Assembly: GCA_965243165.1 (NCBI GenBank)
Contig: OZ251535.1
Span: 1,217,572 to 1,281,571, forward strand
Length of the DNA stretch: 64,000 bases
Direction: 5' to 3'
Source: Candidatus Spongiisociaceae bacterium
Lineage (GTDB): Bacteria > Actinomycetota > Acidimicrobiia > Spongiisociales > Spongiisociaceae
The translations under genes were made by a program, and so were the position numbers. Positions 5,190 to 39,592 of this stretch are shown in pieces. Every line of letters starts with the position of its first letter. Position 1 is the first letter of the stretch. A model generated the notes under the pieces. That model saw nothing but the letters and a program-made list of their open reading frames with translations. It was not told where the DNA came from and ran no database searches.

Positions 5190-5235
5190 CCGCGCCGGGG
5201 GCGGGCGGGAGATGCCGGGGCCGGCGGGCGCTGTG

Positions 5236-5799
5236 TCAGTCGCGTCCGAACAGCTTCTTCACCCCGGAGGAGAGGTTGGAACCCACGGTGGAGGCCAGCA
5301 GCGACACCCCCTTGACGTCGGCGGCTTCGATCTCGGCGGCTTCTTCCTGGTCCGAGGCTTCCAGCTTGGCCTCCAGGCAGGCCACGAAGTCCATGATCAG
5401 CCGCTGCGACATCTGGTTGATGAGGCCGGTGCGCCCGAACTGGGCGGCCGCCCCGGAGATGGTGATGTCGGCGTCCACCACCACCTGTGAACCCCCTTCG
5501 GCGGCGGTGATGGCGTAGTCCACCTTCACCTGGCCGCGCGACCCTCCCCGCTTGTCGATGCCCTTTCCGGCGATCTGTCCGGTCATCGCCTCGGCGTCGG
5601 AGCTGACCGTGGCCTCCCCTTCGAAGCCGGCGGTCATCGGGCCGAGCTTGACCGACACCACCCCGGTGTAGACGCCGCCGCCCCGGTCTTCGGTCAGCGA
5701 GGCGCCGGGGAGGCACTGGGCCACCGAAGGCACGTCCTGGAAGAACCCGAAAACGGTCTCCGGGCTCTGGCCGACCTGGAACTCTTGGGTGATCTTCAT
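5236..5799 (-). CDS. coxG: CoxG-like SRPBCC protein (carbon monoxide dehydrogenase subunit G family)
   Basis: 187 aa starting [32 protein letters not shown]... with the typical CoxG N-terminus and length. Confidence 0.75.
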
Positions 5800-18455: not shown

Positions 18456-19385
18456 TCACCGGTGAAGCGGTTCACCCGATTCGATGTCGTATCGTTCCAG
18501 ATAGTCCTCGATGCTGCGGACGTACGCCCGGATCTGGGCCCCGTTGGGATCGTCGGCGGGGAACCAGCCGGCGGCGTATGAAACCGCTCGGCAGGCCGCC
18601 CGCGCCAGGCCGGCCAACATCTCCGAAGAGGCCTCGAGGCCTTGCCCGGTGCTGCGGCAACCGGCTTCGGTGCGCCATGGCGTGATCGCATCGGCGCCGG
18701 GCGGCTCCAACAGAGGGAGGACGGCCCGGCGGTGAGTTTCCGAGAGCTGGGCGCAGAGCCTGCCTATGTTGTGGCCCCGCGCTGCCCGGTCAGGGTCGGC
18801 CTCTAGATGTATCAGCGTCTTGAGCGACAGTTCCACCACCATATGAGCATTCCCGCAACCGCTTTGCAGCCGTTCGTTCATACGCATCCATATATCCACC
18901 ATTTCGCTGCTGCTTCGTTCGATTCGACCGGGGCCGATATGCTCTAGCAACTCACCCAAAGCAACTCTTGCTTCCTCCAATCGGGCAAGGGATTCCGCGT
19001 AGTCGCTGTCGGGCATCACCATCTCCTTGTTCCAATCCACATCGACGCCAACAGGCCGGTTCACGAGAACCCTCCCATGCCGGGCGATCCGCCCTTCGAG
19101 CGATGTGCGCACCTTGGTGGTGCGCATCCTCCACTCCGCTCGGTCGGTCACGCTCACATCCACCGGGAACTCCACGGCCCGCTCCGCCAGTTCCTCCAGC
19201 TCGCACCCCTTTTCCCGGCGTCTTTCGTAGTCCAGATCGTCGAAGACGGCCATCAGGTCGATGTCGCTGTGCTCGTCGGCTTCCCCGCGGGCCACCGAAC
19301 CGAACAGCACCACCCGGCCCGCCCCCGCCTCCGCCAAGGCCGCCGCCGCCCGTTCCGCGGCGGCCCGCACCGGCGCCGCCGCCAT
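18456..19385 (-). CDS. Nucleotidyltransferase (MNT/pol-beta-like) - HEPN domain fusion protein
   Basis: N-terminal GSVARGEADEHSDIDL (GS...DxD NTase motif). C-terminal helical region with an R-x4-H motif (RAARGH), which is HEPN-like. Its start ATG overlaps the stop of the upstream gene (ATGA). Confidence 0.6.
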   Translation of the reverse strand: MAAAPVRAAAERAAAALAEAGAGRVVLFGSVARGEADEHSDIDLMAVFDDLDYERRREKGCELEELAERAVEFPVDVSVTDRAEWRMRTTKVRTSLEGRIARHGRVLVNRPVGVDVDWNKEMVMPDSDYAESLARLEEARVALGELLEHIGPGRIERSSSEMVDIWMRMNERLQSGCGNAHMVVELSLKTLIHLEADPDRAARGHNIGRLCAQLSETHRRAVLPLLEPPGADAITPWRTEAGCRSTGQGLEASSEMLAGLARAACRAVSYAAGWFPADDPNGAQIRAYVRSIEDYLERYDIESGEPLHR

Positions 19386-27808: not shown

Positions 27809-27914
27809 ACCGCAAGTTTGATAGCTGGAGCGCCCGGCGGCAAGTGCGGCGCCGCCCGGCCCTGTCCAGTACCCGCCCGGAGGCCCGCCGGGGCCTGCCT
27901 TTCCAGCCCTGAGC

Positions 27915-28002
27915 GGGTCGGGGCTTGTCGGGGAAGAGCCTGCGTATGCAGCTCGAACAGGGATGCGCACAACCCTCGATCCCTTGGGAACTACTCATCT
28001 AG
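27915..28002 (+). repeat. Copy A of a conserved about 60-90 nt 5'-region element (GAAGAGCCTGCGTATGC(A/G)GCTCGAACAGGGATGNGCACAACCCTCGATCCCTTGG(G)AACTACTCATCTAG)
   Basis: Near-identical to 49931-50019. Shares its 3' core with 55459-55512 and its 5' part with 54311-54345. Sits on the + strand upstream of a + strand gene. Confidence 0.6.
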
Positions 28003-28090
28003 GCTCAGGCCGGTGAGAGGCGGCGGAATCCCAGCCCCGGAGGGCCGGGGCCTTCCGGTCAGGGCGGCGGGCGGGGCGGCGGTCGGGGCG

Positions 28091-29443
28091 GTGCTGGCGG
28101 CCGGCTGGTGGGAGATGCTGTTCCTTCCGCTCGGCGCCAGCCACGACGGGCGCATCAACGGGCGCTTCGGCCTGCATGTGCGCAACTTCCTCGAGCACGG
28201 GTGGTCGGGTTCAGACTGGCTGTCTTCCCTGGCGCCCTACTCCGCCGGAACCTACAACCATCACCCCCCGCTTCTGAACTCCCTGCAGGCGGCGGTCGGC
28301 TGGGTCTTCGGCCAGGGGGAGTGGCAGCTCCACCTGACGGGTTATCTGGCCGGGCTGGCCACTGCCGCGGGGATGCTGTGGCTGGCGCGGGAGCTCGGCC
28401 TGGGGGCGGGGGCCTCCGTCCTGTCGCTGGCCCTGACGGCTTCCACGCCGATGTTCTGGATATACGCCCGGCTGGGGCTGGGAGTGTCGATCATGTTGGC
28501 GCTGGCGGCGCTCTGGGCCCGTTGGGAACGGACCGGAAAGGGGGGCGGGCTGCTGCCGGCCGCGGCCGCGGCGGCCGCTTTTTCGTCCTGGATGGGGGCG
28601 GCGCTGGCGGTGCTGGCGGCGGGGCTGGGGATGCGGGCCGCCGGCGGCCGGAGGGCGGCTGCCTTGGCGGGGGCGGCCGGCCTGGCGGGTGCGGCCGCCG
28701 CCCTGGCCTGGGCGTTGGCGGCGGGAGAGTCGTCCGAACTGGCCGCCCACGCCGCCTCCCGGCTGCAGTGGCCGGAATGGTCCGCCCTGGCGGAGAACTA
28801 CCGGTGGTTCTACGGTTCTCTGTTTCCCTGGTGGTTCCGGTGGCTGTTCGCCCCGGCTTTGGCGGCTGCGCTGGCCGACCGCCGCACCAGAAGGCCGGCC
28901 GCCGCCTTCCTGGCCGCTCTGGGGATCTGGACCCTGGCCGCCCCCGCCGCCGCCCTCATCCACGACTATTGGACCTATCCGCTGCTGGTTCCGGTGTTCC
29001 TGGGCTGGACGGCGGCGCTGGGCAGGGCGGCGGAGCGCCTGGCGGGGCGGAGGGCGGCGGTCTTGGCGGGTGCGGCCTTCCTGGTGCTGGCCTCGGTGTT
29101 CGGCTTCGCCCGCCTGCCGGACTACCGAGACGCCTATTTCCGGGCCCCCTCCGAGGCCGGGGCCCTCCTCCGGGATGCGGGCGGCCCGGCCGCCGGCCAG
29201 CTGACCGCCTGGGTGGCGGAGGGGGTGGATCCGGTGCCCCGATGGGTCAGCTACTACTGGGACCTCCCCGTGTCGGAGGCCTCCGCCGCTGCGGTCGAAG
29301 CCGGATCCGTGGGGGCGGGCGACCTGGTGCTGGTCCGCCTCGACCGGCTGCCCCGCTGGATGCATCCGGTTCCCGAGCCCTTCGCCCAGAGGGGCCGTTA
29401 CGCCTTGGTGACCGGCGGCGCCCTCCGAGCGGGGGCCGGTTGA
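28091..29443 (+). CDS. GT-C-like polytopic membrane glycosyltransferase (paralog 1)
   Basis: Shares WLPxLGLPLG(D/A)S(D/H)DGRI(L/N)xRFGLxxRNF... and overall architecture with the downstream paralog. Proposed GTG start 28091 (ATG 28115 is an alternative). Confidence 0.5.
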   Translation: MLAAGWWEMLFLPLGASHDGRINGRFGLHVRNFLEHGWSGSDWLSSLAPYSAGTYNHHPPLLNSLQAAVGWVFGQGEWQLHLTGYLAGLATAAGMLWLARELGLGAGASVLSLALTASTPMFWIYARLGLGVSIMLALAALWARWERTGKGGGLLPAAAAAAAFSSWMGAALAVLAAGLGMRAAGGRRAAALAGAAGLAGAAAALAWALAAGESSELAAHAASRLQWPEWSALAENYRWFYGSLFPWWFRWLFAPALAAALADRRTRRPAAAFLAALGIWTLAAPAAALIHDYWTYPLLVPVFLGWTAALGRAAERLAGRRAAVLAGAAFLVLASVFGFARLPDYRDAYFRAPSEAGALLRDAGGPAAGQLTAWVAEGVDPVPRWVSYYWDLPVSEASAAAVEAGSVGAGDLVLVRLDRLPRWMHPVPEPFAQRGRYALVTGGALRAGAG

Positions 29444-29619: not shown

Positions 29620-31095
29620 ATGAAACTTCTACGCTCCGGGGGGGCGGGGCGCCTCTGGTCGGGTTGGACCGCCGCGGTGCTGATCGCGCTGGCGGTGCTG
29701 GCGGTGTGGTTGCCCGATCTCGGCCTTCCGCTGGGTGACAGCGACGACGGCCGCATCCTGGCCCGCTTCGGCCTCCAGGCCCGCAATTTCTGGGAGCTGG
29801 GGGCGGCGGAGTCGGGTTACGGAGCGTTGATCGATCCGTACATCAGGGCCGAGTACGGGGTTCCGCCGGGGGAGGCGCCCCCGCGGGCGGCGGTCACCTA
29901 CGCCCATCATCCGCCCCTCCAGACCTTCGCCACCATCCTCTCGGTCGGGCTGTTCGGCGACAACCTGTTGGGGCTGCGGGCGGCGGGGTTCCTGACGGGG
30001 GCGGCCGCGGTGCTCTTCATGACCGCCCTGCTGCGCATCAGGGGGATCGGATGGGGGCCGGTCCTCTTGGCGGTGGGCTCTATGGCCGCCACCGGTTTCT
30101 ACTTCGTGTACGGGAGGATCGGGGTGGGGTTCTCGCTGATCGTTGCTTTGGCGGCGGCGGTCGCCTATCTGCGGGAGGCCGCCGATCCGACCCCCGCCGC
30201 CTCCGCAGCCGCCGCGGTGCTGGCCGGGCTGACCGCCATGCAGTCGTGGATCGCCATGGCGGCCGCCGGGCTGCTGATCCTGTGGCTGGCGGCCGCCAAG
30301 CGCTGGGCGCCGATCACCCGGTGGACGGCGGCGGGGGCGCTGGCCGGGGCGCTGGTCACCGCCGCCTGGCTGCTCAACTCCACCGACCTGGGCGAGCTGG
30401 GCCAAAGGGCGGCCTTCCGGATCGACACCACCCGGGGGACGTTCGGGGAGTTCCTGGCCCGCCAGTGGCGGTTCGCCTCCATGTTCACGCCGGTTTGGTT
30501 CCGGGCGATGGCGCCCTTCGCCCTGCTGGCCGGACTGGCCGACCGCCGCACCAGGGTTCCCGTCGCCGTCACCCTGGGGGTGGCGGCCGCCTGGACCTTC
30601 GGCCTGCAGCAGGGCGCCTGGATCCATCTGCTCTGGAACTTTCCCTGGCTGGCGCCGGTAACCATCGGGGCGGCGGCGCTGATCGAAGCGGTGCGGCGGG
30701 TGCTGGTCGACAGCTGGGCGGTCTGGGCGGCGGGGGTGTTGTGGGCCGGCGCCCTGGTCTTCTCGCTGTACGGGGCGGCGGCCGGGCCGGCGCGCGAGCT
30801 CTACCTGGCCGCCCCGGCCGACGCCGGGCTGGTGATGGAACAGGCGGCGCAGGCGCGGACGCCGGGGCTGATGTGGGTGACGCCCGGCATCGGCACCCCC
30901 CGGTGGGTCTCCTACTACCTGGACGAGCCGGTCTGGACGCTGGACGCCGGCTCGCTCGGCGGGCTGGAGGCCGAAGACATGGTGCTGGTGCGCACCGACC
31001 GCATCCCCGCCTTCATCCCCGAAGAATCCATGGACGAGGCGCTGATCTCCGAAGGCCGCTACCGCCTGATACCCGGTGGGGCGCTGGTCCGATGA
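29620..31095 (+). CDS. GT-C-like polytopic membrane glycosyltransferase (paralog 2)
   Basis: Paralog of the preceding gene. Start at MKLLRSGG (ATG 29620). Its stop overlaps the start of the giant GT gene (ATGA). Confidence 0.55.
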   Translation: MKLLRSGGAGRLWSGWTAAVLIALAVLAVWLPDLGLPLGDSDDGRILARFGLQARNFWELGAAESGYGALIDPYIRAEYGVPPGEAPPRAAVTYAHHPPLQTFATILSVGLFGDNLLGLRAAGFLTGAAAVLFMTALLRIRGIGWGPVLLAVGSMAATGFYFVYGRIGVGFSLIVALAAAVAYLREAADPTPAASAAAAVLAGLTAMQSWIAMAAAGLLILWLAAAKRWAPITRWTAAGALAGALVTAAWLLNSTDLGELGQRAAFRIDTTRGTFGEFLARQWRFASMFTPVWFRAMAPFALLAGLADRRTRVPVAVTLGVAAAWTFGLQQGAWIHLLWNFPWLAPVTIGAAALIEAVRRVLVDSWAVWAAGVLWAGALVFSLYGAAAGPARELYLAAPADAGLVMEQAAQARTPGLMWVTPGIGTPRWVSYYLDEPVWTLDAGSLGGLEAEDMVLVRTDRIPAFIPEESMDEALISEGRYRLIPGGALVR

Positions 31096-34000
31096 AGCGC
31101 GCCGAAGCCCCCGATCCGAGCGGCCCGGCGGCGGAAGGCCCGCAGCCGGCGGCGGTGCGGGGCAACGACTGGCGCCGGGTCGAGGTCGCTCCGCTCGACG
31201 GGTTCACCCCCTCCCTGAGGGCGTCGGTGGTGATCCCCTTCTACGAGGCCCCGGAGGCGCTGGCCCTCACCTTGGCGGCCCTGGCCGGCCAGACCTATCC
31301 GCGCCGCCTGTTCGAGGTGATCGCGGTGGACGACGGGTCGAAGACCCCCCTCCGCAAACCCGAAGGGACCGGCCTGGACCTGAGGATACTGCACCAGGAA
31401 CACCGGGGGTTCGGGGCGCCCAGAGCCCGCAACAAGGGCGCCGGGGCCGCTTCCGGCGATTTCCTGGTGTTCCTCGACTGCGACATGATGCCGGAGGCGG
31501 GGTGGCTGGCCGCCCACGCCCGGTGGCACCACGTCCTGTCCGACGTGCTGACGCTGGGGTTCCGGGCGCATGTGGAAGTGGACGGGGTGGACGCGGCGGC
31601 GGTGGCGGGCCGGGCGGGTTCCCTGGCGGAGCTGTTCTCGGACCGCCCGGCGCAGCGGCCCGAGTGGATCGAGTTCCACATGGCCCGCACCAACGAGCTC
31701 ACCTCCACCGCCGACGACATCTTCCGGGTGGTTACCTCCGGCAACCTGGGGGTGGGCCGGAGCTTCTTCGAGGCCGCCGGAGGGTTCGACGAATCGTTCA
31801 CCCAATGGGGGGCCGAGGACACCGAGTTCGGATACCGGGCTTTCACGAAGGGAGCGCTGCTGGCGCCCGAGCGGGCCGCCTTCTGTTGGCACCAGGGGCC
31901 CGGCGCCTCCCCCAGCGAGGCCGAGATGCGGAGCCTCGACCTCCAGCGGGCCAAGTCGGCCCACCTGATCGCCCACAACGGGTTCCGCCGCGCCTCGCCC
32001 GGACGCACCTTCACCGTCCCCCAGCATGCGGTGACCCTCGAAAGCGGGGAAACCCCGGCCGAGGACGTCTTCGCCGCCGCGGTGCGCATCCTCGGAGACC
32101 GGATGCACGACTTGGCGGTGCTGATCGAGGACCGGACGGACGACCCCGGCTGGGAGTGGCTGCGGCGCCAGCTGGGGCCCGACCCGCGCGTCCGGTTCGG
32201 CCCGCCCGGCGCCGCCTTGGACGAATTTCCGGCTTCCCCGTTCCACATCACCTGTCCGCCGGGGGCGGCGCCGCCGGAGAACATGATCTACACGCTCCGC
32301 AGCGAGCTGGGCGGCGCGGTGTCGGCGGCGCTGGTGTTGGAGGACGGCGCCCGGGTGACGATCAGCCGTTCCTGGGCGTTGCACCGGTCGCGCCGTTCCG
32401 GCAGGCCCCTCGCCGAGCTGGGCGCGGCGGTCTCGGTGAAGGCCGAGAAGATGGTGCTCGACATGAAACCCTGGCGGCCCCCCCTCACCGTCAAAGGGGT
32501 GCTGCGGCGGCTCCGGCGCATGACGCTGCGGGTGTGGGGGCCGATCTGGACGCAGCGATGGGCGGTGCGGCGGCTGTACCGGGCCCTGATAGGGATCCGC
32601 AGCCCCCGGCAGGCCTGGCAGGTCGCCCAATGGGCGGCGGAGGCGGTGCGGGGCCGGGCGCAGGCGGTGTTCCGGTTCGCGCTGCGGCGCACACCCGATT
32701 CGCCCGCCGCCGATTACCCCCTCGGAATGGAGATAGCGGTGAGGGGAGAGCGGTCGGCGGCGGTGCTGGCGGCCTCCGCCCGGGTCTGGCGGGCGCCGCG
32801 CATCCGGCGCCGGGCCAAGCGCCGCATCGACCTGGTGCTGGCCGACCGCCCGGAGGCGGCGGCCCGGCCGCCGACCGCCGGAATCCCGGCGGCGGTGCTC
32901 ACCGAAGCCCCCCCGCAGGTTTCGGTTCCCGCCTTCGACCCGCAGGCCGTCAACCCGATCGGATGGGCGCGGGCGCCGAAGTACGGGGCCGGGGCGTTGG
33001 GTCCCGTCGAGTTGCTTCCGTCCGGGGCCGCCGAGCGCACCGTGGAAGGCTCGGACCGGGAAACACTCCGCCTGCTCCACCATCTGGAAGACACCGCCGC
33101 CTTCCACTCCGGCCCCGTCGAGCGGGCCGCCGCCCTGGCCGCTCTGGCCGCCCGGGGGGTGGTGGTCCATCTGGCCGACCGGGACCGGGGGCTGGAACCC
33201 CTGTTGGGCCCGGAACTCTACGGGTCGATGGCCTCCCCCCGCATCCGGGGCGCCGATCCGGGGGAGCGGGAGCTGATCAGCGCCGCCATGCGCCGCGCCG
33301 CTCTGAGAGGCCATTCCCTCCGCAGCCGCGTCCGTCAGATCGCGGCGGCGGCCTCCTTGGAACCGCCGCCGCTCACGAAGGTGTCGGTGCTGGCGCCCGC
33401 CCGCCGCCCCGGCCTGCTTCCCGGCCTGCTGGCGGCGGTCTCCTCCCAGACCTACCCGAGGTTGGAGCTGGTGCTGACCCTCTACGGCGGGGGGTTCGGT
33501 CCGGAGGCGGAGCAGGCGGCCGAGGAAATGCCCTGTCCGGTCAGGGTGGTCAGGGCTGGTGACGACCTTCCGCTCGGCGCCGTTCTGAACCAGGCGGCGC
33601 GGGCCTCGCGCGGCGTCCTGATCACCGTGATGGACGACCGTCACCTCTACGGCCCCGAGCACATCTGGGATCTGGTGCTGGCCCGCGAGTACTCGGCGGC
33701 CGAGCTGGTGGTCAAAGAGACCGAGTTCGTGTACCTGGCCGCGACCGACCGGACGCTGCGCCGTTCGACCGGCCCCGGCGAGGACTATCTGGACGCCGCC
33801 GCCCTGGCGGACGGAGCGCTGCTCCTCTCCCACCGCCGCCTGGAAGAGGCCGGAGGATGGAAGAGGACAGAAGACGGTTTAGAGGAAAGCCTCGCCCACG
33901 ACGTCGTTTCGGCGGGCGGGCGGGTCTACCGGACCCACGGGGCCGGAATGGCGTTGGCGGCCGCCGGGCGGGACCGGCCGGCCCGGCTGGACGACGGCTA

Positions 34001-37000
34001 CCTGCTGGCCCAAGCCGAGGAAGTGCGGGGCGGATGGGACCCGGCTTTCTGCGGGCTGCCGCCCTCCGCCGTTCCGCGGCCGTACGGCGAAGGCGCCGCC
34101 GCCTCCGAACCCCTGCTCCGAGGGGCGGCGGACGGCCCGCGGCCGGCGGCGGTGCGGGGCAACGACTGGCGCGAGGTCGAAATCCCGCCGATCGAGGAGT
34201 TCACGCCCGTCCTGGGGGTGTCGGTGGTGGTCCCCTACTACGAGGCGCCGGAGGCCTTGGAGCTGACCTTGGCGGCGCTGGCGGGGCAGACCTATCCGCG
34301 TGATCTGTTCGAGGTGATCGTGGTGGACGACGGCTCGAAGACCCCGCTGCCGCGCCCCGAAGGCACGGGCCTGGACCTGAAGGTGGTCCGCCAGGAGGAT
34401 CTGGGGTTCGGCCTGGCCAGGGCGCGCAACACCGGAGCGGGGGCCGCCCGGCGCGGCATCCTGGTGTTCCTCGACTGCGACATGATGCCCGAGGCGGGGT
34501 GGCTGGCCGCCCACGCCCGGTGGCACCACGTCCTGTCCGACGTGCTGACGCTGGGGTTCCGGGCGCATGTGGAGGTGGACGGGGTGAACGCCGCGGCGGT
34601 GTCGGGCCGGGCGGGTTCCCTGGCGGAGCTGTTCGCGGGCCGGCCGACGGAGCGCCCGGAGTGGATCGAGTTCCACATGGAGAGGACCGACGGCCTCACC
34701 TCCGCCGCTGACGATATCTTCCGGGTGGTGACCGGAGGGAACCTGGGTGTCTCCAAGGAGTTCTTCGAGGCCGTCGGCGGCTTCGACGAGTCGTTCACCC
34801 AGTGGGGGGCGGAGGACACCGAGTTCGGATACCGGGCCTATACCCGGGGCGGCCTGCTGGCGCCCGAGCGGGCGGCCTTCTGTTGGCACCAGGGGACGGG
34901 CGCCTCCCCCAGCGAGGCCGAGATGAAGAGCCGCGAGCTGCAGCGGGCCAAGATCGCCCACCTGATCGCCCATTACGGATTTCGCGGCGACGCCCGCGGG
35001 CGGAGCTTCACGGTTCCGCAGTATGCGGTCACCCTGGAGTCCGGCAACGCGTCGGCGGAGGACGTCTTCTTGGCGGCCGAGCGGATCCTGAGCGGGGCGG
35101 TGCATGATCTGGTGGTGCGGATCGAGGACCGGCCCGACGACCCCGACTTCGAATGGCTGCGCCGCCAGCTGGACCCCGATCCTAGGGTCGGCTTCGGTTC
35201 CCCTGCCTCCGCCTTGGACGACTTCCCCGTCTCCGCCTTCCACGTGTACGCCCCGGCCGGAGTGGAGCTGGTGGAGAACCTGGTTCTCGAGCTTCGCACC
35301 GAGCTGGGGGAGGCGGCGTCGGCGGTGTTGGTGCTGGAAGACGGGGCCCGGGCGTCGATCACCAGGACGTGGGCGCTGCATCGGTCGCGGCGTTCGGCGG
35401 GGAGCATAGACCGCTGGGGCACCCGGAAAACAGCCCCGGCGGGGGAGGCCCGGTCTACCGCCAGGGCGGTGCTCCGCTCCAAGCGGGCGTCCCGCCGGGT
35501 GCGGAAGGTCAGGTCGAAGGCCGCCCGGGTGCTGTACGAGCTGCGGCGGGTGCGCAGCTTCCGCCAGGTCTGGGGGTTTCTGAGGTGGTTCGCGGCGGCG
35601 GCGGGGCGGCGGCTGGAAGGGGCGCGCCGCTACCGGATGATGCAGCTCCGCCGCGGATTCCGCCCCGGCGGCTTCCTGCCGGCGAGGCGGGCCGGACGGT
35701 TGGGCGGTTCGGGGGCGGCCTACCCCTTGGGCGCCGAGATGATCGCCCTGGGGCCGAAAGCCGGGCGGGTCTTCGCCGCTTCTACCAGGGTGCGCCGCTT
35801 CTTCGACGGGCGGCACGTCGATCTGGTGTTGGCCGACGACCCCGGGGCGGCCGAGGAGGCCGGGGAGGCTGCGGTCCCCTCCGTGGTGCTTTCGGAGTCG
35901 CCCCCCTCGTTTTCGGTCCCCGCCTTCGATCTGTTGACGGTCAACCCGATCAGATGGGTGCGGGAACCGAAGCACGGGGCGGCGGCGCTGGGTTCGCCCG
36001 CAATGCTTCCGCCCTCCTCCTCCGCCCGGCGGAGGGTGGACCGCAGCGACCGCCGCGCCCTGAGCCAGATCCACCATCTCGAGGACGCGGCCGGCTTCCA
36101 TTCCGGCCCCGTCGAGCGGGCGGGCGCGCTGGCGGCTCTGGCCGGTATGGGGGTGGTGGTGCATCTGGCCGACCAGAATCCGGATCCGGAGCTGGAATCC
36201 CTGCTCGGCGCCGAACTGTACGGGGCGATGGCTGATTCCGCGATCCTGGACGCCGGCCTCGACCGCCGGGAGGCCCTCAGCATCGCTATGCGCCGGGAGG
36301 CGCTCCGCAGCCATTCCCTCCCCGCCCGCGCCCGGCAGATCATCTCGGCCGGACTCCCCGGCCTGCCGCTCTTGGCGGATGTCTCGATCCTGGCCCCCAC
36401 CAAACGCCCCCGCATGGTCCCCCAGGTGCTGGCCGCCGCCGCCTCCCAGACCTACCCGCGGCTGGAGCTGGTGCTGGCGCTGCATGGGGCCGGCTTCGAC
36501 CGCGGGGCGCGGGCCGACATCGAGGCCCGGGCGGGGGACCTGCCGTTTCCGGTCCGCATCCTTGCGGCGGGGGAGGAGCTGAACCTCGGCGAGGTGCTCG
36601 AACTGGCGTCGGAGGCGGCGGAGGGAACCCTGCTCACCAAGCTGGACGACGACGACCTGTACAGTCCCGAGCACGTCTGGGACCTCGTTCTGGCCCGCCA
36701 GTATTCGAAGGCCGAGCTGGCGGCCAAGGGGGCCGAGTTCGTGTATCTGGCCGGCTCGGACCTGACCCTCCACCGTTTCTGCGGGAAGGGAGAAGCGGCG
36801 CCGAAGGTGGTTTCGGTCGCCGGGGGGACGCTGCTGATATCCCGCCGCGATCTGGAGGCGGCCGGAGGATGGAGAAGGGCGCCGAGGGGGGTGGATACGG
36901 CGCTGATCGAGGACGTGAGGCGGGCGGGCGGGTCGGTCTACCGCACCCACGGTTTCGGCTATGTGCTGGTGCGGCACGGCTCCGGCCACACGTGGGAGTC

Positions 37001-37121
37001 GGAAGACGGCTATTTCCTCCGGCAGGCCGAGTCGGTGAGCGAAGGCTGGGATCCCGGCTTCGCCGGACTCGACCCGGGGGCGGTGTTCCCCGAGGCGCTG
37101 CGGAGGCCGGATCCGGTTTGA
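31092..37121 (+). CDS. Giant multidomain glycosyltransferase (about 2009 aa), internal tandem duplication of an about 1000 aa dual-GT module (four GT2-like domains)
   Basis: No stop codon between the two halves. Each half has an N-terminal GT2 domain (VVIPFYEAPEAL..., DDGS, FLDCDMMPEAGW, GAEDTEFGYR) and a C-terminal second GT-like domain (SQTYPRLELVL..., DDxxLY..H). Both copies share stretches of >100 nt that are essentially identical (31470-31580 vs 34470-34580). Confidence 0.7.
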   Translation: MKRAEAPDPSGPAAEGPQPAAVRGNDWRRVEVAPLDGFTPSLRASVVIPFYEAPEALALTLAALAGQTYPRRLFEVIAVDDGSKTPLRKPEGTGLDLRILHQEHRGFGAPRARNKGAGAASGDFLVFLDCDMMPEAGWLAAHARWHHVLSDVLTLGFRAHVEVDGVDAAAVAGRAGSLAELFSDRPAQRPEWIEFHMARTNELTSTADDIFRVVTSGNLGVGRSFFEAAGGFDESFTQWGAEDTEFGYRAFTKGALLAPERAAFCWHQGPGASPSEAEMRSLDLQRAKSAHLIAHNGFRRASPGRTFTVPQHAVTLESGETPAEDVFAAAVRILGDRMHDLAVLIEDRTDDPGWEWLRRQLGPDPRVRFGPPGAALDEFPASPFHITCPPGAAPPENMIYTLRSELGGAVSAALVLEDGARVTISRSWALHRSRRSGRPLAELGAAVSVKAEKMVLDMKPWRPPLTVKGVLRRLRRMTLRVWGPIWTQRWAVRRLYRALIGIRSPRQAWQVAQWAAEAVRGRAQAVFRFALRRTPDSPAADYPLGMEIAVRGERSAAVLAASARVWRAPRIRRRAKRRIDLVLADRPEAAARPPTAGIPAAVLTEAPPQVSVPAFDPQAVNPIGWARAPKYGAGALGPVELLPSGAAERTVEGSDRETLRLLHHLEDTAAFHSGPVERAAALAALAARGVVVHLADRDRGLEPLLGPELYGSMASPRIRGADPGERELISAAMRRAALRGHSLRSRVRQIAAAASLEPPPLTKVSVLAPARRPGLLPGLLAAVSSQTYPRLELVLTLYGGGFGPEAEQAAEEMPCPVRVVRAGDDLPLGAVLNQAARASRGVLITVMDDRHLYGPEHIWDLVLAREYSAAELVVKETEFVYLAATDRTLRRSTGPGEDYLDAAALADGALLLSHRRLEEAGGWKRTEDGLEESLAHDVVSAGGRVYRTHGAGMALAAAGRDRPARLDDGYLLAQAEEVRGGWDPAFCGLPPSAVPRPYGEGAAASEPLLRGAADGPRPAAVRGNDWREVEIPPIEEFTPVLGVSVVVPYYEAPEALELTLAALAGQTYPRDLFEVIVVDDGSKTPLPRPEGTGLDLKVVRQEDLGFGLARARNTGAGAARRGILVFLDCDMMPEAGWLAAHARWHHVLSDVLTLGFRAHVEVDGVNAAAVSGRAGSLAELFAGRPTERPEWIEFHMERTDGLTSAADDIFRVVTGGNLGVSKEFFEAVGGFDESFTQWGAEDTEFGYRAYTRGGLLAPERAAFCWHQGTGASPSEAEMKSRELQRAKIAHLIAHYGFRGDARGRSFTVPQYAVTLESGNASAEDVFLAAERILSGAVHDLVVRIEDRPDDPDFEWLRRQLDPDPRVGFGSPASALDDFPVSAFHVYAPAGVELVENLVLELRTELGEAASAVLVLEDGARASITRTWALHRSRRSAGSIDRWGTRKTAPAGEARSTARAVLRSKRASRRVRKVRSKAARVLYELRRVRSFRQVWGFLRWFAAAAGRRLEGARRYRMMQLRRGFRPGGFLPARRAGRLGGSGAAYPLGAEMIALGPKAGRVFAASTRVRRFFDGRHVDLVLADDPGAAEEAGEAAVPSVVLSESPPSFSVPAFDLLTVNPIRWVREPKHGAAALGSPAMLPPSSSARRRVDRSDRRALSQIHHLEDAAGFHSGPVERAGALAALAGMGVVVHLADQNPDPELESLLGAELYGAMADSAILDAGLDRREALSIAMRREALRSHSLPARARQIISAGLPGLPLLADVSILAPTKRPRMVPQVLAAAASQTYPRLELVLALHGAGFDRGARADIEARAGDLPFPVRILAAGEELNLGEVLELASEAAEGTLLTKLDDDDLYSPEHVWDLVLARQYSKAELAAKGAEFVYLAGSDLTLHRFCGKGEAAPKVVSVAGGTLLISRRDLEAAGGWRRAPRGVDTALIEDVRRAGGSVYRTHGFGYVLVRHGSGHTWESEDGYFLRQAESVSEGWDPGFAGLDPGAVFPEALRRPDPV

Positions 37122-37423
37122 CAGCGCCCTCCGCGGGAGAGCGCGCCGCCGTCCGCCCCGCAGCTGCTCGGATGACCCTGATTGTTCACATCCCCGCGGG
37201 CGGGCCGCCGCCCGCGCCGGTCATGAGCCGATGCATCCGGATTTCTGAACCGGCAGCGCTTGCCCAATGGTGAACTCGCGTTTCTGATCAGACAGTCATC
37301 TCCCGTTGTTGTCCCAGGTCAGATGGGATGACAGAGGGTATTTCAGCTGCCCTGCCCCATCTCTCGTGAGCAATTCAGGGTCAAGGCGCGGGAGATCGGG
37401 CGGCGGTTTATAGACTGCCCTGG

Positions 37424-39592
37424 ATGTTCAGGAAGGTCAGGAGTGTTTGGCCGGCGGCGGCCGCGGCCCTGGCTGCGGCGGCGCTCGCCGCGCCGGCGGC
37501 CTTGCCGGCCTCGGCCGACGACGGCCCCTCTTTCACCTTCGAAGGCGCCGGGTGGGGCCACGGCGTGGGCATGAGCCAGTGGGGGGCCTACAACCAGGCC
37601 CGGGAAGACCCCTCTAAGAAGGGGGAGGACATCGCCGCCCACTATTACCCCGGCTCGCAGCCGGCCTCCCTGTCTGATCTGAGACTTCCCAACGATCTGT
37701 TGGACGAGCTGGAGGCGCCCCTGTGGATCAACATCGCTTCCCAGATCAGCATCTTGGAGTTCACTCCGGTGGGGGGTCCGGTCGACCTGTGCCTGGCGGG
37801 GGACGGCGAGGGCGATTGCCCCAAATCCGTGCAGCCGCAGGCAGGGGAGCGGTGGGAGTTCCGCCGCATCGACGTCGGCGAATGCGGTTTCTTCTTGGGC
37901 GGAGAGCTGCAGGGAACGCCGGGGGATTGCCGGGCTTCGATCTCGTGGCCGGAGGCGGACGGGGTGCGGCTCCGCTACGGACCGGATCGGCTCAGGCCGT
38001 GTTCCTTGTCCTCCTCGGAATGCGAATACCGGCACGGCGAGCTGAAGCTGCGCGACGATCCGGTGGAGGTGGGTTTCCACGTGGTGCTGACCATCGGATT
38101 GGAGGACTACGTGCGGGGCATCGGCGAGATATCCGCCGCCTGGAGTCTGCCCGGCGTCAACGAGGCCCAGGCGGTGGCGTCCCGCACCTACGCCGTCTAC
38201 AAGTTCCTGGCCCACGAGGTGGGGCCGCGTTCGGAAGACGACCCGAACCTGGATCCGGGCATCACCCCTTCCCGGATGGACGCCTGCTGGTGCCACCTGT
38301 ACGACAACACCCGCGATCAGGTGTACCTGGGCAATTGGAGGAAGACCGAGCCCACCCATTCGGTCTGGGTGAAGGCGGTGGCGGACACCGAAGGCCGGGT
38401 GCTCGCCTACCAAGGGCCGGATTGGGAGCGTTACACCAAGGGCGGGGTGATCCAGGCCTTCTTCTCCGCCTCCTCGGGCGGCATCACCACCAGCAACCAG
38501 TTCGGCTTCTTCACCGGCTGGGACGGCGCCACCCCCCGCAACAAACTCTGGCCCTACCTGGCTCCGACCCCGGACCCGTGGGCCGTCGATCCGGAGTGGA
38601 ACAACCCCCACGCCTCGTGGAGCAGGTCGATCCCGGCCTCCCGCATAGCCGGGCTGTTGGGATGGGACGAGGTGACCTCCGCCTCGCTCGACGTCAGCCC
38701 CTCCCTCACTTCGGTGGCCAGGGTGCGTTTCGAAGGTTCGGACGAAGGCCAACCGGCCTCCACCTCGGCCGGCGGGGCCTGGCTGCGGTACCGGCTGGGG
38801 CTCAAGTCGTCTCATGTAACCGCCGTCGACGGGCAGGAGGCGCCGCCCACCGAGGAGACCGTTCCGCCGGAAGAACCGGAAGAATCCGAGGAGCCTGAAG
38901 AGCCTGAAGAGCCCCCCTCGGCGGAAGAGCCCGAGGAGCCTGAGGAGGCCGAGGATGACGGCGCCGCGACGCCGGGCCAGACCCCGGACGACGAAGACAT
39001 CTACGACGAGCTGCCCGGGTTCGACGACATCGCAGGTTCGGTCCATGAAGAGGGGATCGAGGCGATCTACGACCGGGGGTACACCCACGGATGCAGCAAC
39101 GACAGCATCTCCTACTGCCCCGACGACGACGTCGACCGGGCCACCATGGCCGCCTACCTGTCCAGGGCGCTGTGGCCGAGGGGGCCGCCCCTCCCCAGAG
39201 AGATGGACAGGTTCGGGGACGTACCGGAGCAGCATCCGTACGCCTTGGCCATCTATGCGCTGGCCGGGTCGGAGATCACCATGGGATGCGGCGACGGCTC
39301 GAACTTCTGCCCCCGCGGCACCTTGACCAGAGGGCAGATGGCTTCCTTCCTGATGAGGTCGATGGGCCTCGAACCCCTGCAGTCGCTGGACGGGATGACC
39401 TTCGAGGACGTGCCCCCGGGCCATGCCCATGAAGGCGCCGTCTACGCCATCGCCGCCGAAGGCGTAACCGTCGGCTGCGGGGACGGAACCCTGTTCTGCC
39501 CGGACGCGACGCTGACCAGGGGGCACATCGCCACCTTCCTGGCCCGGGCTTTCATCTGGAGAGGGCCCTCACCTCCCTCGGACGGGGCCTAG
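37424..39592 (+). CDS. SpoIID/LytB-domain secreted protein with acidic Pro/Glu-rich linker and C-terminal Cys-containing repeats
   Basis: Signal peptide, then the GHGVGMSQWGA SpoIID signature, an EEPEESEEPEEPEEP linker, and repeated C-terminal ...GCGDG..FCP... motifs. Confidence 0.7.
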   Translation: MFRKVRSVWPAAAAALAAAALAAPAALPASADDGPSFTFEGAGWGHGVGMSQWGAYNQAREDPSKKGEDIAAHYYPGSQPASLSDLRLPNDLLDELEAPLWINIASQISILEFTPVGGPVDLCLAGDGEGDCPKSVQPQAGERWEFRRIDVGECGFFLGGELQGTPGDCRASISWPEADGVRLRYGPDRLRPCSLSSSECEYRHGELKLRDDPVEVGFHVVLTIGLEDYVRGIGEISAAWSLPGVNEAQAVASRTYAVYKFLAHEVGPRSEDDPNLDPGITPSRMDACWCHLYDNTRDQVYLGNWRKTEPTHSVWVKAVADTEGRVLAYQGPDWERYTKGGVIQAFFSASSGGITTSNQFGFFTGWDGATPRNKLWPYLAPTPDPWAVDPEWNNPHASWSRSIPASRIAGLLGWDEVTSASLDVSPSLTSVARVRFEGSDEGQPASTSAGGAWLRYRLGLKSSHVTAVDGQEAPPTEETVPPEEPEESEEPEEPEEPPSAEEPEEPEEAEDDGAATPGQTPDDEDIYDELPGFDDIAGSVHEEGIEAIYDRGYTHGCSNDSISYCPDDDVDRATMAAYLSRALWPRGPPLPREMDRFGDVPEQHPYALAIYALAGSEITMGCGDGSNFCPRGTLTRGQMASFLMRSMGLEPLQSLDGMTFEDVPPGHAHEGAVYAIAAEGVTVGCGDGTLFCPDATLTRGHIATFLARAFIWRGPSPPSDGA

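Follow-up and report, generated by a model that had tools for sequence, protein, structure and literature searches.

An approximately 88-nt intergenic repeat in a sponge-associated member of the Acidimicrobiia is probably the conserved right end of a MITE family

We analysed a stretch of 64,000 nt from a Candidatus Spongiisociaceae bacterium (hereafter the window), which has a G+C content of 69% and in which a short sequence recurs upstream of a GT-C gene, a membrane protein gene and a solA-like gene. The 40-nt core of this sequence, allowing up to 3 mismatches, was found three times in the 64-kb window and always on the + strand, at 27952-27991 (copy A), 49970-50009 (copy B) and 55465-55504 (copy C, at the solA locus), and 0 times in 100 dinucleotide-preserving shuffles. 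Over 80-90 nt, A shares 91% identity with B, and the solA copies are ~87% identical to B. The repeat which had been picked out from the sequence alone is therefore present at all three places, with copies 87-91% alike that chance does not produce. An nhmmer profile built from these same three copies recovered them at E values of 3e-31 to 6e-27, scored a 5′ fragment at 54314-54358 more weakly (E 0.12) and also gave a short match on the minus strand, 49812-49834, which is the left inverted repeat of copy B described below. Repeat-finding in the window recovered two families, D8 and D20, which are these copies.

The copies lie in intergenic spacers: copy A between GT2 and GT-C genes, copy B between a gene encoding a PspC-domain protein and the membrane protein gene, and the third copy in the spacer between EamA and solA. 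The gap from the copy to the downstream start codon is 10 nt for A, 177 nt for B and 69 nt for C. The sequence-only reading was right that the repeat precedes three + strand genes, but its distance to the GT-C gene was wrong (~90 nt claimed, 10 nt found). It should be noted that the neighbours of A and of B are divergent, so that either orientation of the repeat would face a gene; a 5′-UTR orientation bias cannot be claimed for this reason, and only the solA copy is informative on orientation.

Exact and degenerate patterns of the core gave 0 matches in genome contigs, 0 in metagenome contigs and 0 in viral contigs. A hairpin-anchored pattern matched 4 times in metagenomes, all by chance (contigs of 52% G+C, with no likeness outside the pattern). 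Complete copy B had no match in plasmid and phage collections, and six-frame translations of the three copies had none at E ≤ 10 in a collection of 5.8 billion proteins, a search which has low power with segments of 30 residues. Readings of the arm by eye as an ECF-type (GGAAC-N16-17-CGTT), sigma-54 or sigma-70 promoter were discarded, as their downstream half-sites lie in the non-conserved flanks.

Relatives were reached via protein homologues and their contigs and are 85-96% identical to the window. L011 and L016 belong to one metagenome scaffold with ~95-97% nucleotide identity to the window, and L018 and L020 are additional close strains; L014 and L019 are each ~91% identical to the window, L012 and L013 ~83-89% and L015 ~85%. 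With one genome counted per species, the best match of the solA-like protein was L001, a “Candidatus Spongiisociaceae” MAG (85% amino acid identity), and the second-best an uncultured Acidimicrobiia MAG. The repeat family is restricted to one lineage of sponge-associated Acidimicrobiia, and all three of its loci in the 64 kb are polymorphic for the insertion among relatives L011-L020.

Copy B is a complete unit. Its last 16-20 nt recur in inverted orientation 165 nt upstream, a feature absent from the earlier description, and the two ends (ATGGGYAGCTCCRAGG ... CCTTGGAACTNNYCAT) give an inverted match of 14/16, attained by 1 of 2000 shuffled versions of the upstream 600 nt. The unit so bounded is a 197-nt MITE at 49819..50015 on the + strand, with a left terminal inverted repeat, ATGGGTAGCTCCAAGG, at 49819..49834 (+), a right inverted end, CCTTGGAACTACTCAT, at 50000-50015 (+) and the conserved right arm of 84 nt at 49932-50015. 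CTAG is found on the outer side of both ends, at 49815..49818 and 50016..50019 (both +), as left and right target-site duplications. There is no coding capacity within the unit, which holds just short ORFs that are inconsistent in frame. When the unit and one CTAG are taken out, the joined flanks are collinear with the spacer of L012 (68 vs 70 nt), a relative with both flanking genes and without the element. In L011 the entire 1.2-kb stretch corresponding to 48968-50175 is missing.

The insertion at the solA locus occupies 53205..55510 (+) and is 2306 nt long in the window, against 721 nt in L011. It begins with a degenerate left inverted repeat, ATGGGCAGCTTCGAGA, at 53205..53220 (+), preceded at 53201..53204 (+) by a left target-site duplication which is CGGA (decayed) in the window and CGAG in L011 and L018. 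It ends with the right arm in two parts, a 5′ part at about 54313-54346 (+) and a 3′ part at 55459..55510 (+), which is copy C and ends in the right inverted repeat CCTTGGAACTGTTCAT; the right target-site duplication, CGAG, follows at 55511..55514 (+). The 5′ part had been listed as a further, partial copy of the repeat. The sequence is indeed there, but it is no separate copy: the arm is unsplit in L011 and L020 (CGCGGGCCGGGGGTTGCCGGCGAAGAGCCTGCTTATGCGGCTCGAA...CATCGAG) and is broken in the window by 1112 nt between GCCTGCTT (to 54346) and ATGCGG (from 55459), so that a single copy provides both the fragment at 54.3 kb (its 5′ half) and copy C (its 3′ half). L018 has lost the 5′ part of the arm and retains the 3′ half.

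The copy is absent from the solA locus of L019, L012, L013, L001 and L002, and the EamA-solA spacer is just 58-90 nt long in L019 and L012. The empty site of L012 (GGCGGTTCGAAGCCCGG) is laid out as ...AAGCCCGGCGGTT-CGAA-GCCCGGCCCC..., with a single CGAA, and the filled site of L011 reads GGCGGGT-CGAG-[unit]-CGAG-GTCCGGG, or with longer flanks ...AAGCCCGGCGGGT-CGAG-[ATGGGCAGC ... GTTCAT]-CGAG-GTCCGGGCCC... The joined flanks align with L012 here as they do at the B locus. Since CGAG is non-palindromic and its two occurrences, one at each end, read alike along a single strand, they are a direct target duplication which lies outside the inverted repeat. This decided the limits of the unit: a 208-nt version with CTAG inside the inverted repeat was considered, and 197 nt with a 4-bp duplication was preferred.

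The left end of the solA unit is preserved to differing extents. In L018 (ATGGGCAGCTCCGAGGTTGCC) it is identical to the left end of B at 18/21 positions, exactly at the insertion junction, and matches its own right end at 12/16 (equalled in 10/500 shuffles). In the window and L011 the likeness to the left end of B is 16/21, and at most 11/16 positions match their own right end, no better than chance, which we counted against a MITE. The solA unit is of the same type as copy B and is larger only through nested repeats. The public protein P0203 corresponds exactly to 55476-56750, and this solA product begins at an ATG within the element.

The nested insertion of 1112 nt (54347..55458) interrupts the arm within a hairpin loop (GAGCCTGC-TTAT-GCGGCTC) and has CTT on both sides. 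It contains a gene for a coiled-coil protein on the − strand (54485-55033), is absent in L011 and L020 and is partly deleted in L018. Its edges are the ends of a second MITE family, Y, of ~125 nt with 19-nt inverted repeats (inverted ends AGAAGACGAGCGGATAGG / CCATATCCGCTCGTCCTCT). More Y copies are found at 53337-53460 and 53784-53909, and comparison with L011 and L018 identified 53337-53909 as another nested insertion with a 3-bp TTC duplication. A third repeat family, Z, of ~210 nt, lies at 53957-54170 and was also found at unrelated loci in L012, L014 and L015. Insertions of this kind, nested one after another and belonging to several families of small mobile repeats, have lengthened the EamA-solA spacer from ~58-90 nt to 2.4 kb within ~5% sequence divergence. 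The possibility that the direct repeats are att sites of integrated islands was rejected, as the window contains no integrase and the units have inverted ends and 4-bp duplications of their own.

Copy A, in front of the GT-C gene, consists of the right arm only, 85 nt (CGGGTCGGGG...ACTACTCAT) at 27914..27998 (+). Its left junction comes directly after a native CCCTGAG, which is also found in L015, and its right junction is precise (CTCAT-CTAG-GCTCAGGCCGGTG), with the CTAG at 27999..28002 (+). L014 and L015 are without the element at this locus, and L016 and L017 have a diverged 42-nt 3′ part only, at the same junction. Weak likenesses in L014 (CCCCGAT...TGTTCACGA) and L015 (CTATGGGGAGG...CGCTCAT) were examined as relics and are too weak to call. 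Several features of this copy count against a MITE. It is without a left inverted repeat; its 5′ boundary falls no more than 2 nt from the point at which the likeness of B and the solA copy ends, a coincidence which is unexplained; and the window and L016 differ by ~25% plus a 46-nt gap inside the element, against ~10% in the flanks. This excess hints at conversion from another copy, re-insertion or secondary deletion. The left part of copy A may have been deleted or may never have been inserted.

The start of the GT-C gene had been placed at 28091 and is corrected here to the GTG at 28013, based on the match to the public protein P0207 (476 aa), which equals 28013-29443 exactly with the exception of the initiator residue, and on the conserved N-terminus: at the protein level, the window, L014 and L015 show conservation of the first 26 codons, and GT-C homologues are 470-490 aa long. 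Within the CTAG that adjoins copy A on its right, TAG opens a conserved −10-like hexamer (TANNNT), TAGGCT, at 28000-28005, 7 nt before the GTG and with a putative promoter role. The surrounding (T/A)TAGGCTCA(G/A)GCCGGTGA is kept in L014, L015 and L016 irrespective of whether the element is present. The GTG is not preceded by a Shine-Dalgarno sequence, and from what is understood of actinobacterial promoters we take this to be the arrangement of a leaderless gene. The GT-C gene is probably leaderless; if so, copy A would lie upstream of the transcription start and could not be a leader RNA.

We consider it likely, with a probability of roughly 0.8, that the ~88-nt repeat is the conserved right end of a non-coding MITE family which is recently inserted and lineage-restricted. 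One of the options put forward on first inspection, a small mobile repeat, was borne out by the empty sites in relatives, the terminal inverted repeats, the 4-bp duplications and the nested insertions, and these were observed directly, as were the identity of the repeats and their decay. It should be noted that three loci were examined in the 64-kb window and that inverted ends together with a 4-bp duplication were seen at two of them (B and solA). The G+C-rich composition of the unit also counts against this reading, as MITEs are usually described as AT-rich. No transposase was found in the window or in the loci retrieved from relatives. The family itself is previously undescribed, and the kind of element is already known.

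If the repeat is such a MITE, a transposase encoded elsewhere would bind both ends and mobilise the unit in trans. A staggered cut of 4 nt at a C(T/G)AG-like target, insertion of the unit and repair of the gaps would then give rise to the duplication. Sites of this type would be rare at 69% G+C and gathered in promoter-proximal spacers which tolerate insertion; promoter-proximal targets would explain why all copies are found just upstream of genes. The right arm common to the copies may be the part of the parent element which all derivatives have kept. After insertion, copies would decay or be remodelled, as with A, which is without the left part, and the solA copy, which is enlarged and split.

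Movement by another route was considered. The arm could be a palindrome derived from REP/RAYT or IS200/IS605 elements and mobilised in single-stranded form by a Y1 (HUH) transposase, given that there are hairpins near both ends of the 85-nt arm, that all copies are on one strand, that copy A has no inverted partner and that the loop of a hairpin is exactly where a second element has inserted. At two of the three loci, however, the ends are inverted and a direct duplication of 4 bp is present, neither of which a Y1 mechanism makes; the left flanks (TGAG, TGCG, CTCG) are without a fixed tetra- or pentanucleotide; and three copies would be found in one orientation by chance with a probability of 1 in 4. 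This route is very unlikely in our judgement.

A second option raised from the sequence alone was that the repeat is a structured cis-regulatory RNA resembling a riboswitch, which would form the transcribed 5′ UTR of the genes that follow. The shared orientation upstream of + strand genes fits with this, as do two short hairpins, GAGCCTGC-GTAT-GCGGCTC and AGGGAT-N14-ATCCCT, and the latter was found in A and B as claimed. A search of Rfam 15, however, returned no hit for the window at the gathering threshold and none of relevance around copy A at E ≤ 10. Predicted folds were no better than those of shuffled sequences, with z-scores of −1.27, +1.01 and +0.52 on the + strand and from −1.3 to +1.5 when either strand was considered. 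Aligning five related versions with RNAalifold, a comparison of low power, gave −15 kcal/mol with an unfavourable covariation term (+0.56), and 0 of the 21 predicted pairs had compensatory changes. The AGGGAT arm of the hairpin is AGAGAT in L011, without compensation, and is intact in L020.

Comparison with relatives bears on the same point. The element is missing from orthologous leaders in relatives at 85-92% identity: it was found neither upstream of solA in L001, L002, L012, L013 and L019, nor upstream of GT-C in L014 and L015, nor upstream of the membrane protein gene in L011 and L012. Absence at orthologous positions speaks against a riboswitch or any conserved leader, and a mobile repeat is not expected there. 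Furthermore, the end of copy A is 10 nt short of the start codon and precedes the −10 box, and the three downstream genes (GT-C, membrane protein and solA) have no pathway in common. We regard a regulatory RNA as extremely unlikely.

The third option was a leader-peptide attenuator, in which a small ORF, M(Q/R)LEQGCAQPSIPW, would be translated and would control the downstream genes. A and B do have the first 14 codons in common, with two synonymous differences and one non-synonymous difference, and to this extent the shared peptide was found as described. Not all of the differences are synonymous, however, and the common frame ends with Trp14, whose codon is followed by an additional G in A; the ORF is 18 codons long in A, and in B it continues as far as about 50245. 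Three non-synonymous changes (C->W, Q->R and S->P) are found in the solA copies, and the ORF of L011 has an in-frame stop at codon 7 (MRLEER*). A consensus scan detected no terminator-like site downstream, and the element is missing in relatives. The frameshift, the non-synonymous changes and the stop leave this option with next to no credibility.

It could also be the case that the arm arrived by transposition and is now kept as an exapted regulatory cassette, acting as a promoter element, an operator or an outward promoter. Conservation between copies is higher in the right arm (87-91%) than in the remainder of the units, each of the three copies precedes a + strand start codon by 10-177 nt, and the terminal CTAG with its flank makes a TANNNT hexamer at two loci, TAGGCT at A and TAGCTT at B, the former being the conserved −10-like box of a gene which is probably leaderless. 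However, TAGGCT is already present in relatives without the element and is therefore part of the target, not supplied by the element, and the solA copies end in CGAG without such a hexamer. A consensus promoter scan found nothing inside the element, which is weak evidence given that a sigma-70 consensus is ill-suited to Actinobacteria. An insertion of 1.1 kb splits one copy, another is cut to 42 nt and another again is without its 5′ third in near-identical strains, all of which argues against constraint. We think exaptation, a role which some Correia elements play in Neisseria, unlikely.

A bolder form of the idea is that the MITE prefers the TAG of −10 boxes (TAGNNT), including those of leaderless genes, and that its arm replaces the upstream part of the promoter, giving a portable regulatory module which is kept by selection and not only through the recency of the insertions. 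In a sponge symbiont, such a module would rewire how cell-envelope and metabolic genes are expressed; we consider this form of the idea quite unlikely. More modestly, copies which sit next to promoters, one of them on the −10 box of the probably leaderless GT-C gene, could alter expression.

The relevance of the MITE family is mainly for the annotation and comparative genomics of sponge symbionts. A repeat of this type is open to being mistaken for a regulatory RNA, and gene calling has already been misled by it at solA. Its insertions are usable as markers for the discrimination of strains.

Prokaryotic MITEs are described as being shorter than 500 bp and intergenic, with inverted repeats of ~4-30 bp and with flanking direct repeats when young, and shortened copies without ends are common (PMC10969869). 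The repeat described here resembles Chunjie of Geobacter and QMITE1 and QMITE2 of Coxiella (PMC10969869) in being short, non-coding and intergenic. Also as in prokaryotic MITEs, the 197-nt unit has 16-nt terminal inverted repeats and a short target duplication, and the copies in the window vary in length, are nested with other elements and are polymorphic among close strains. Unlike the known prokaryotic MITEs, with which it had no sequence similarity in the plasmid and phage searches and the pattern scans of genome, metagenome and viral contigs, it is G+C-rich and is strongly conserved in the right arm only.

Correia elements, the MITEs of Neisseria, are similar in that they are ~200 nt long and are found immediately upstream of genes, and the terminal and target bases of our element likewise contribute to −10-like hexamers at the junction. 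Correia elements duplicate TA and carry promoters and IHF sites which have been tested (PMC10969869). The element in the window, in contrast, duplicates 4 bp, and no promoter was predicted in it by the consensus scan.

Insertion sequences of the IS5 type, together with MITEs derived from them, also come close, with a 4-bp duplication and, at one or two of the loci here, a CTAG target. IS5-type elements produce their 4-bp duplication at YTAR/CTAG targets, and the second target found here, CGAG, does not fit YTAR. The inverted repeat of the element is presumably also unlike IS5 ends, and IS5 kinship of the MITE can be offered as a lead only. Other intergenic repeats of actinobacteria, among them the mycobacterial interspersed repetitive units, share with our element a length of 40-100 nt, an intergenic position, a host of high G+C content and, in some cases, small ORFs. 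Such repeats are tandem or operon-internal and are not known to have inverted ends or target duplications. The copies described here are, unlike these, single and dispersed, and have the hallmarks of a transposon.

The arm of the small non-coding mobile element (MITE) at the solA locus, that is, its conserved right end, is split by a 1.1-kb insertion (54347-55458) whose ends are of the type of a second small repeat family, Y, and whose insertion point lies exactly in the loop of one of the arm's hairpins. The insertion carries a gene on the − strand (54485-55033) for a 182-aa protein with three tandem repeats of 36 aa (108 nt) each and a hydrophobic C-terminus. It was found neither in L011 nor in L020, two homologous loci from close relatives, and is partially deleted in a third, L018. 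The whole looks like a MITE-like element with a passenger gene.

Family Y has a unit of ~125 nt with terminal inverted repeats of 19 nt, AGAAGACGAGCGGATAGG ... CCATATCCGCTCGTCCTCT. Copies were found in the window at 53337-53460 (+), 53784-53909 (+) and 54363-54490 (−), and in L011 at 18891-19032. The first two belong to a single insertion, 53337-53909, in the order Y, 323-nt middle piece, Y, which is accompanied by a duplication of TTC and is missing from L011 and L018, where the empty site reads AAGTTC|GATTCC. Positions 53461-53751 (~290 nt) match a tandem pair of copies in L011 (18279-18564 and 18619-18878) at 87-88% identity; both copies lie within a 1.6-kb insertion specific to L011, between an HSDR_N-like gene and an alcohol dehydrogenase gene; its empty site corresponds to window positions 62948-63021.

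A third dispersed repeat, of ~210 nt and 71-73% identity, occupies unrelated intergenic sites across several relatives. It was found at 53957-54170 in the window, at 5200-5412 and 8151-8365 in L012, at 2527-2637 in L014 and at 4119-4333 in L015. The GPDH-YchF spacer is one of these sites in a relative, and the window sequence differs there. Two window sites also have in common a motif of ~50 nt, CTGATCAGACAGTYATCTC(A)CYGTTRTTRYCCCAGGTYAGA, which includes an ACAG...CTGT inverted repeat: 55216-55262, inside the 1.1-kb insertion and upstream of solA, and 37284-37330, upstream of a gene starting near 37424. The motif is shared with L016 (16355-16401) and L018 (1737-1783) and might serve as a promoter region or as a binding site for a protein.

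Where the window has the stretch 48968-50175, which includes a gene for a PspC-domain membrane protein (49059-49787, −) and MITE copy B, L011 has 125 nt instead. The PspC-domain gene is present, without the MITE, in the more distant L012, so its absence from L011 is probably due to deletion.

The sequence-only reading had placed the start of the GT-C-type glycosyltransferase gene at 28091; we assign it instead to a GTG at 28013. This GTG is preceded, at a distance of 7 nt, by a conserved TAGGCT and has no Shine-Dalgarno sequence, so the gene is probably leaderless; the arrangement (28000-28015) is kept in L014, L015 and L016. A very large ORF at 30051-37121 encodes a multi-domain glycosyltransferase of 2356 aa (2008 aa in the L016 orthologue) and contains an internal tandem duplication of ~3 kb, comprising repeat families D1, D3, D7, D9, D10 and D18 at 70-81% identity.

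The public solA protein of the source genome, P0203 (424 aa), corresponds to 55476-56750 and begins at an ATG within the MITE arm. Since orthologues in other strains have 380-392 aa, the MITE insertion has probably misled the annotation, making the N-terminal 36 residues an artefact. The upstream solA ATG of L011-type strains (MTGRMAGGS...) is abolished in the window by a 1-nt difference. Two EamA-family transporter paralogues (52220-53173 and ~56790-57738; 75-79% nucleotide identity) flank solA, and genes for a glycine/sarcosine/betaine reductase follow downstream. Gene calls in relatives divide the GrdA of this set into two parts (42 and 108 aa), a pattern that usually points to an in-frame selenocysteine codon.
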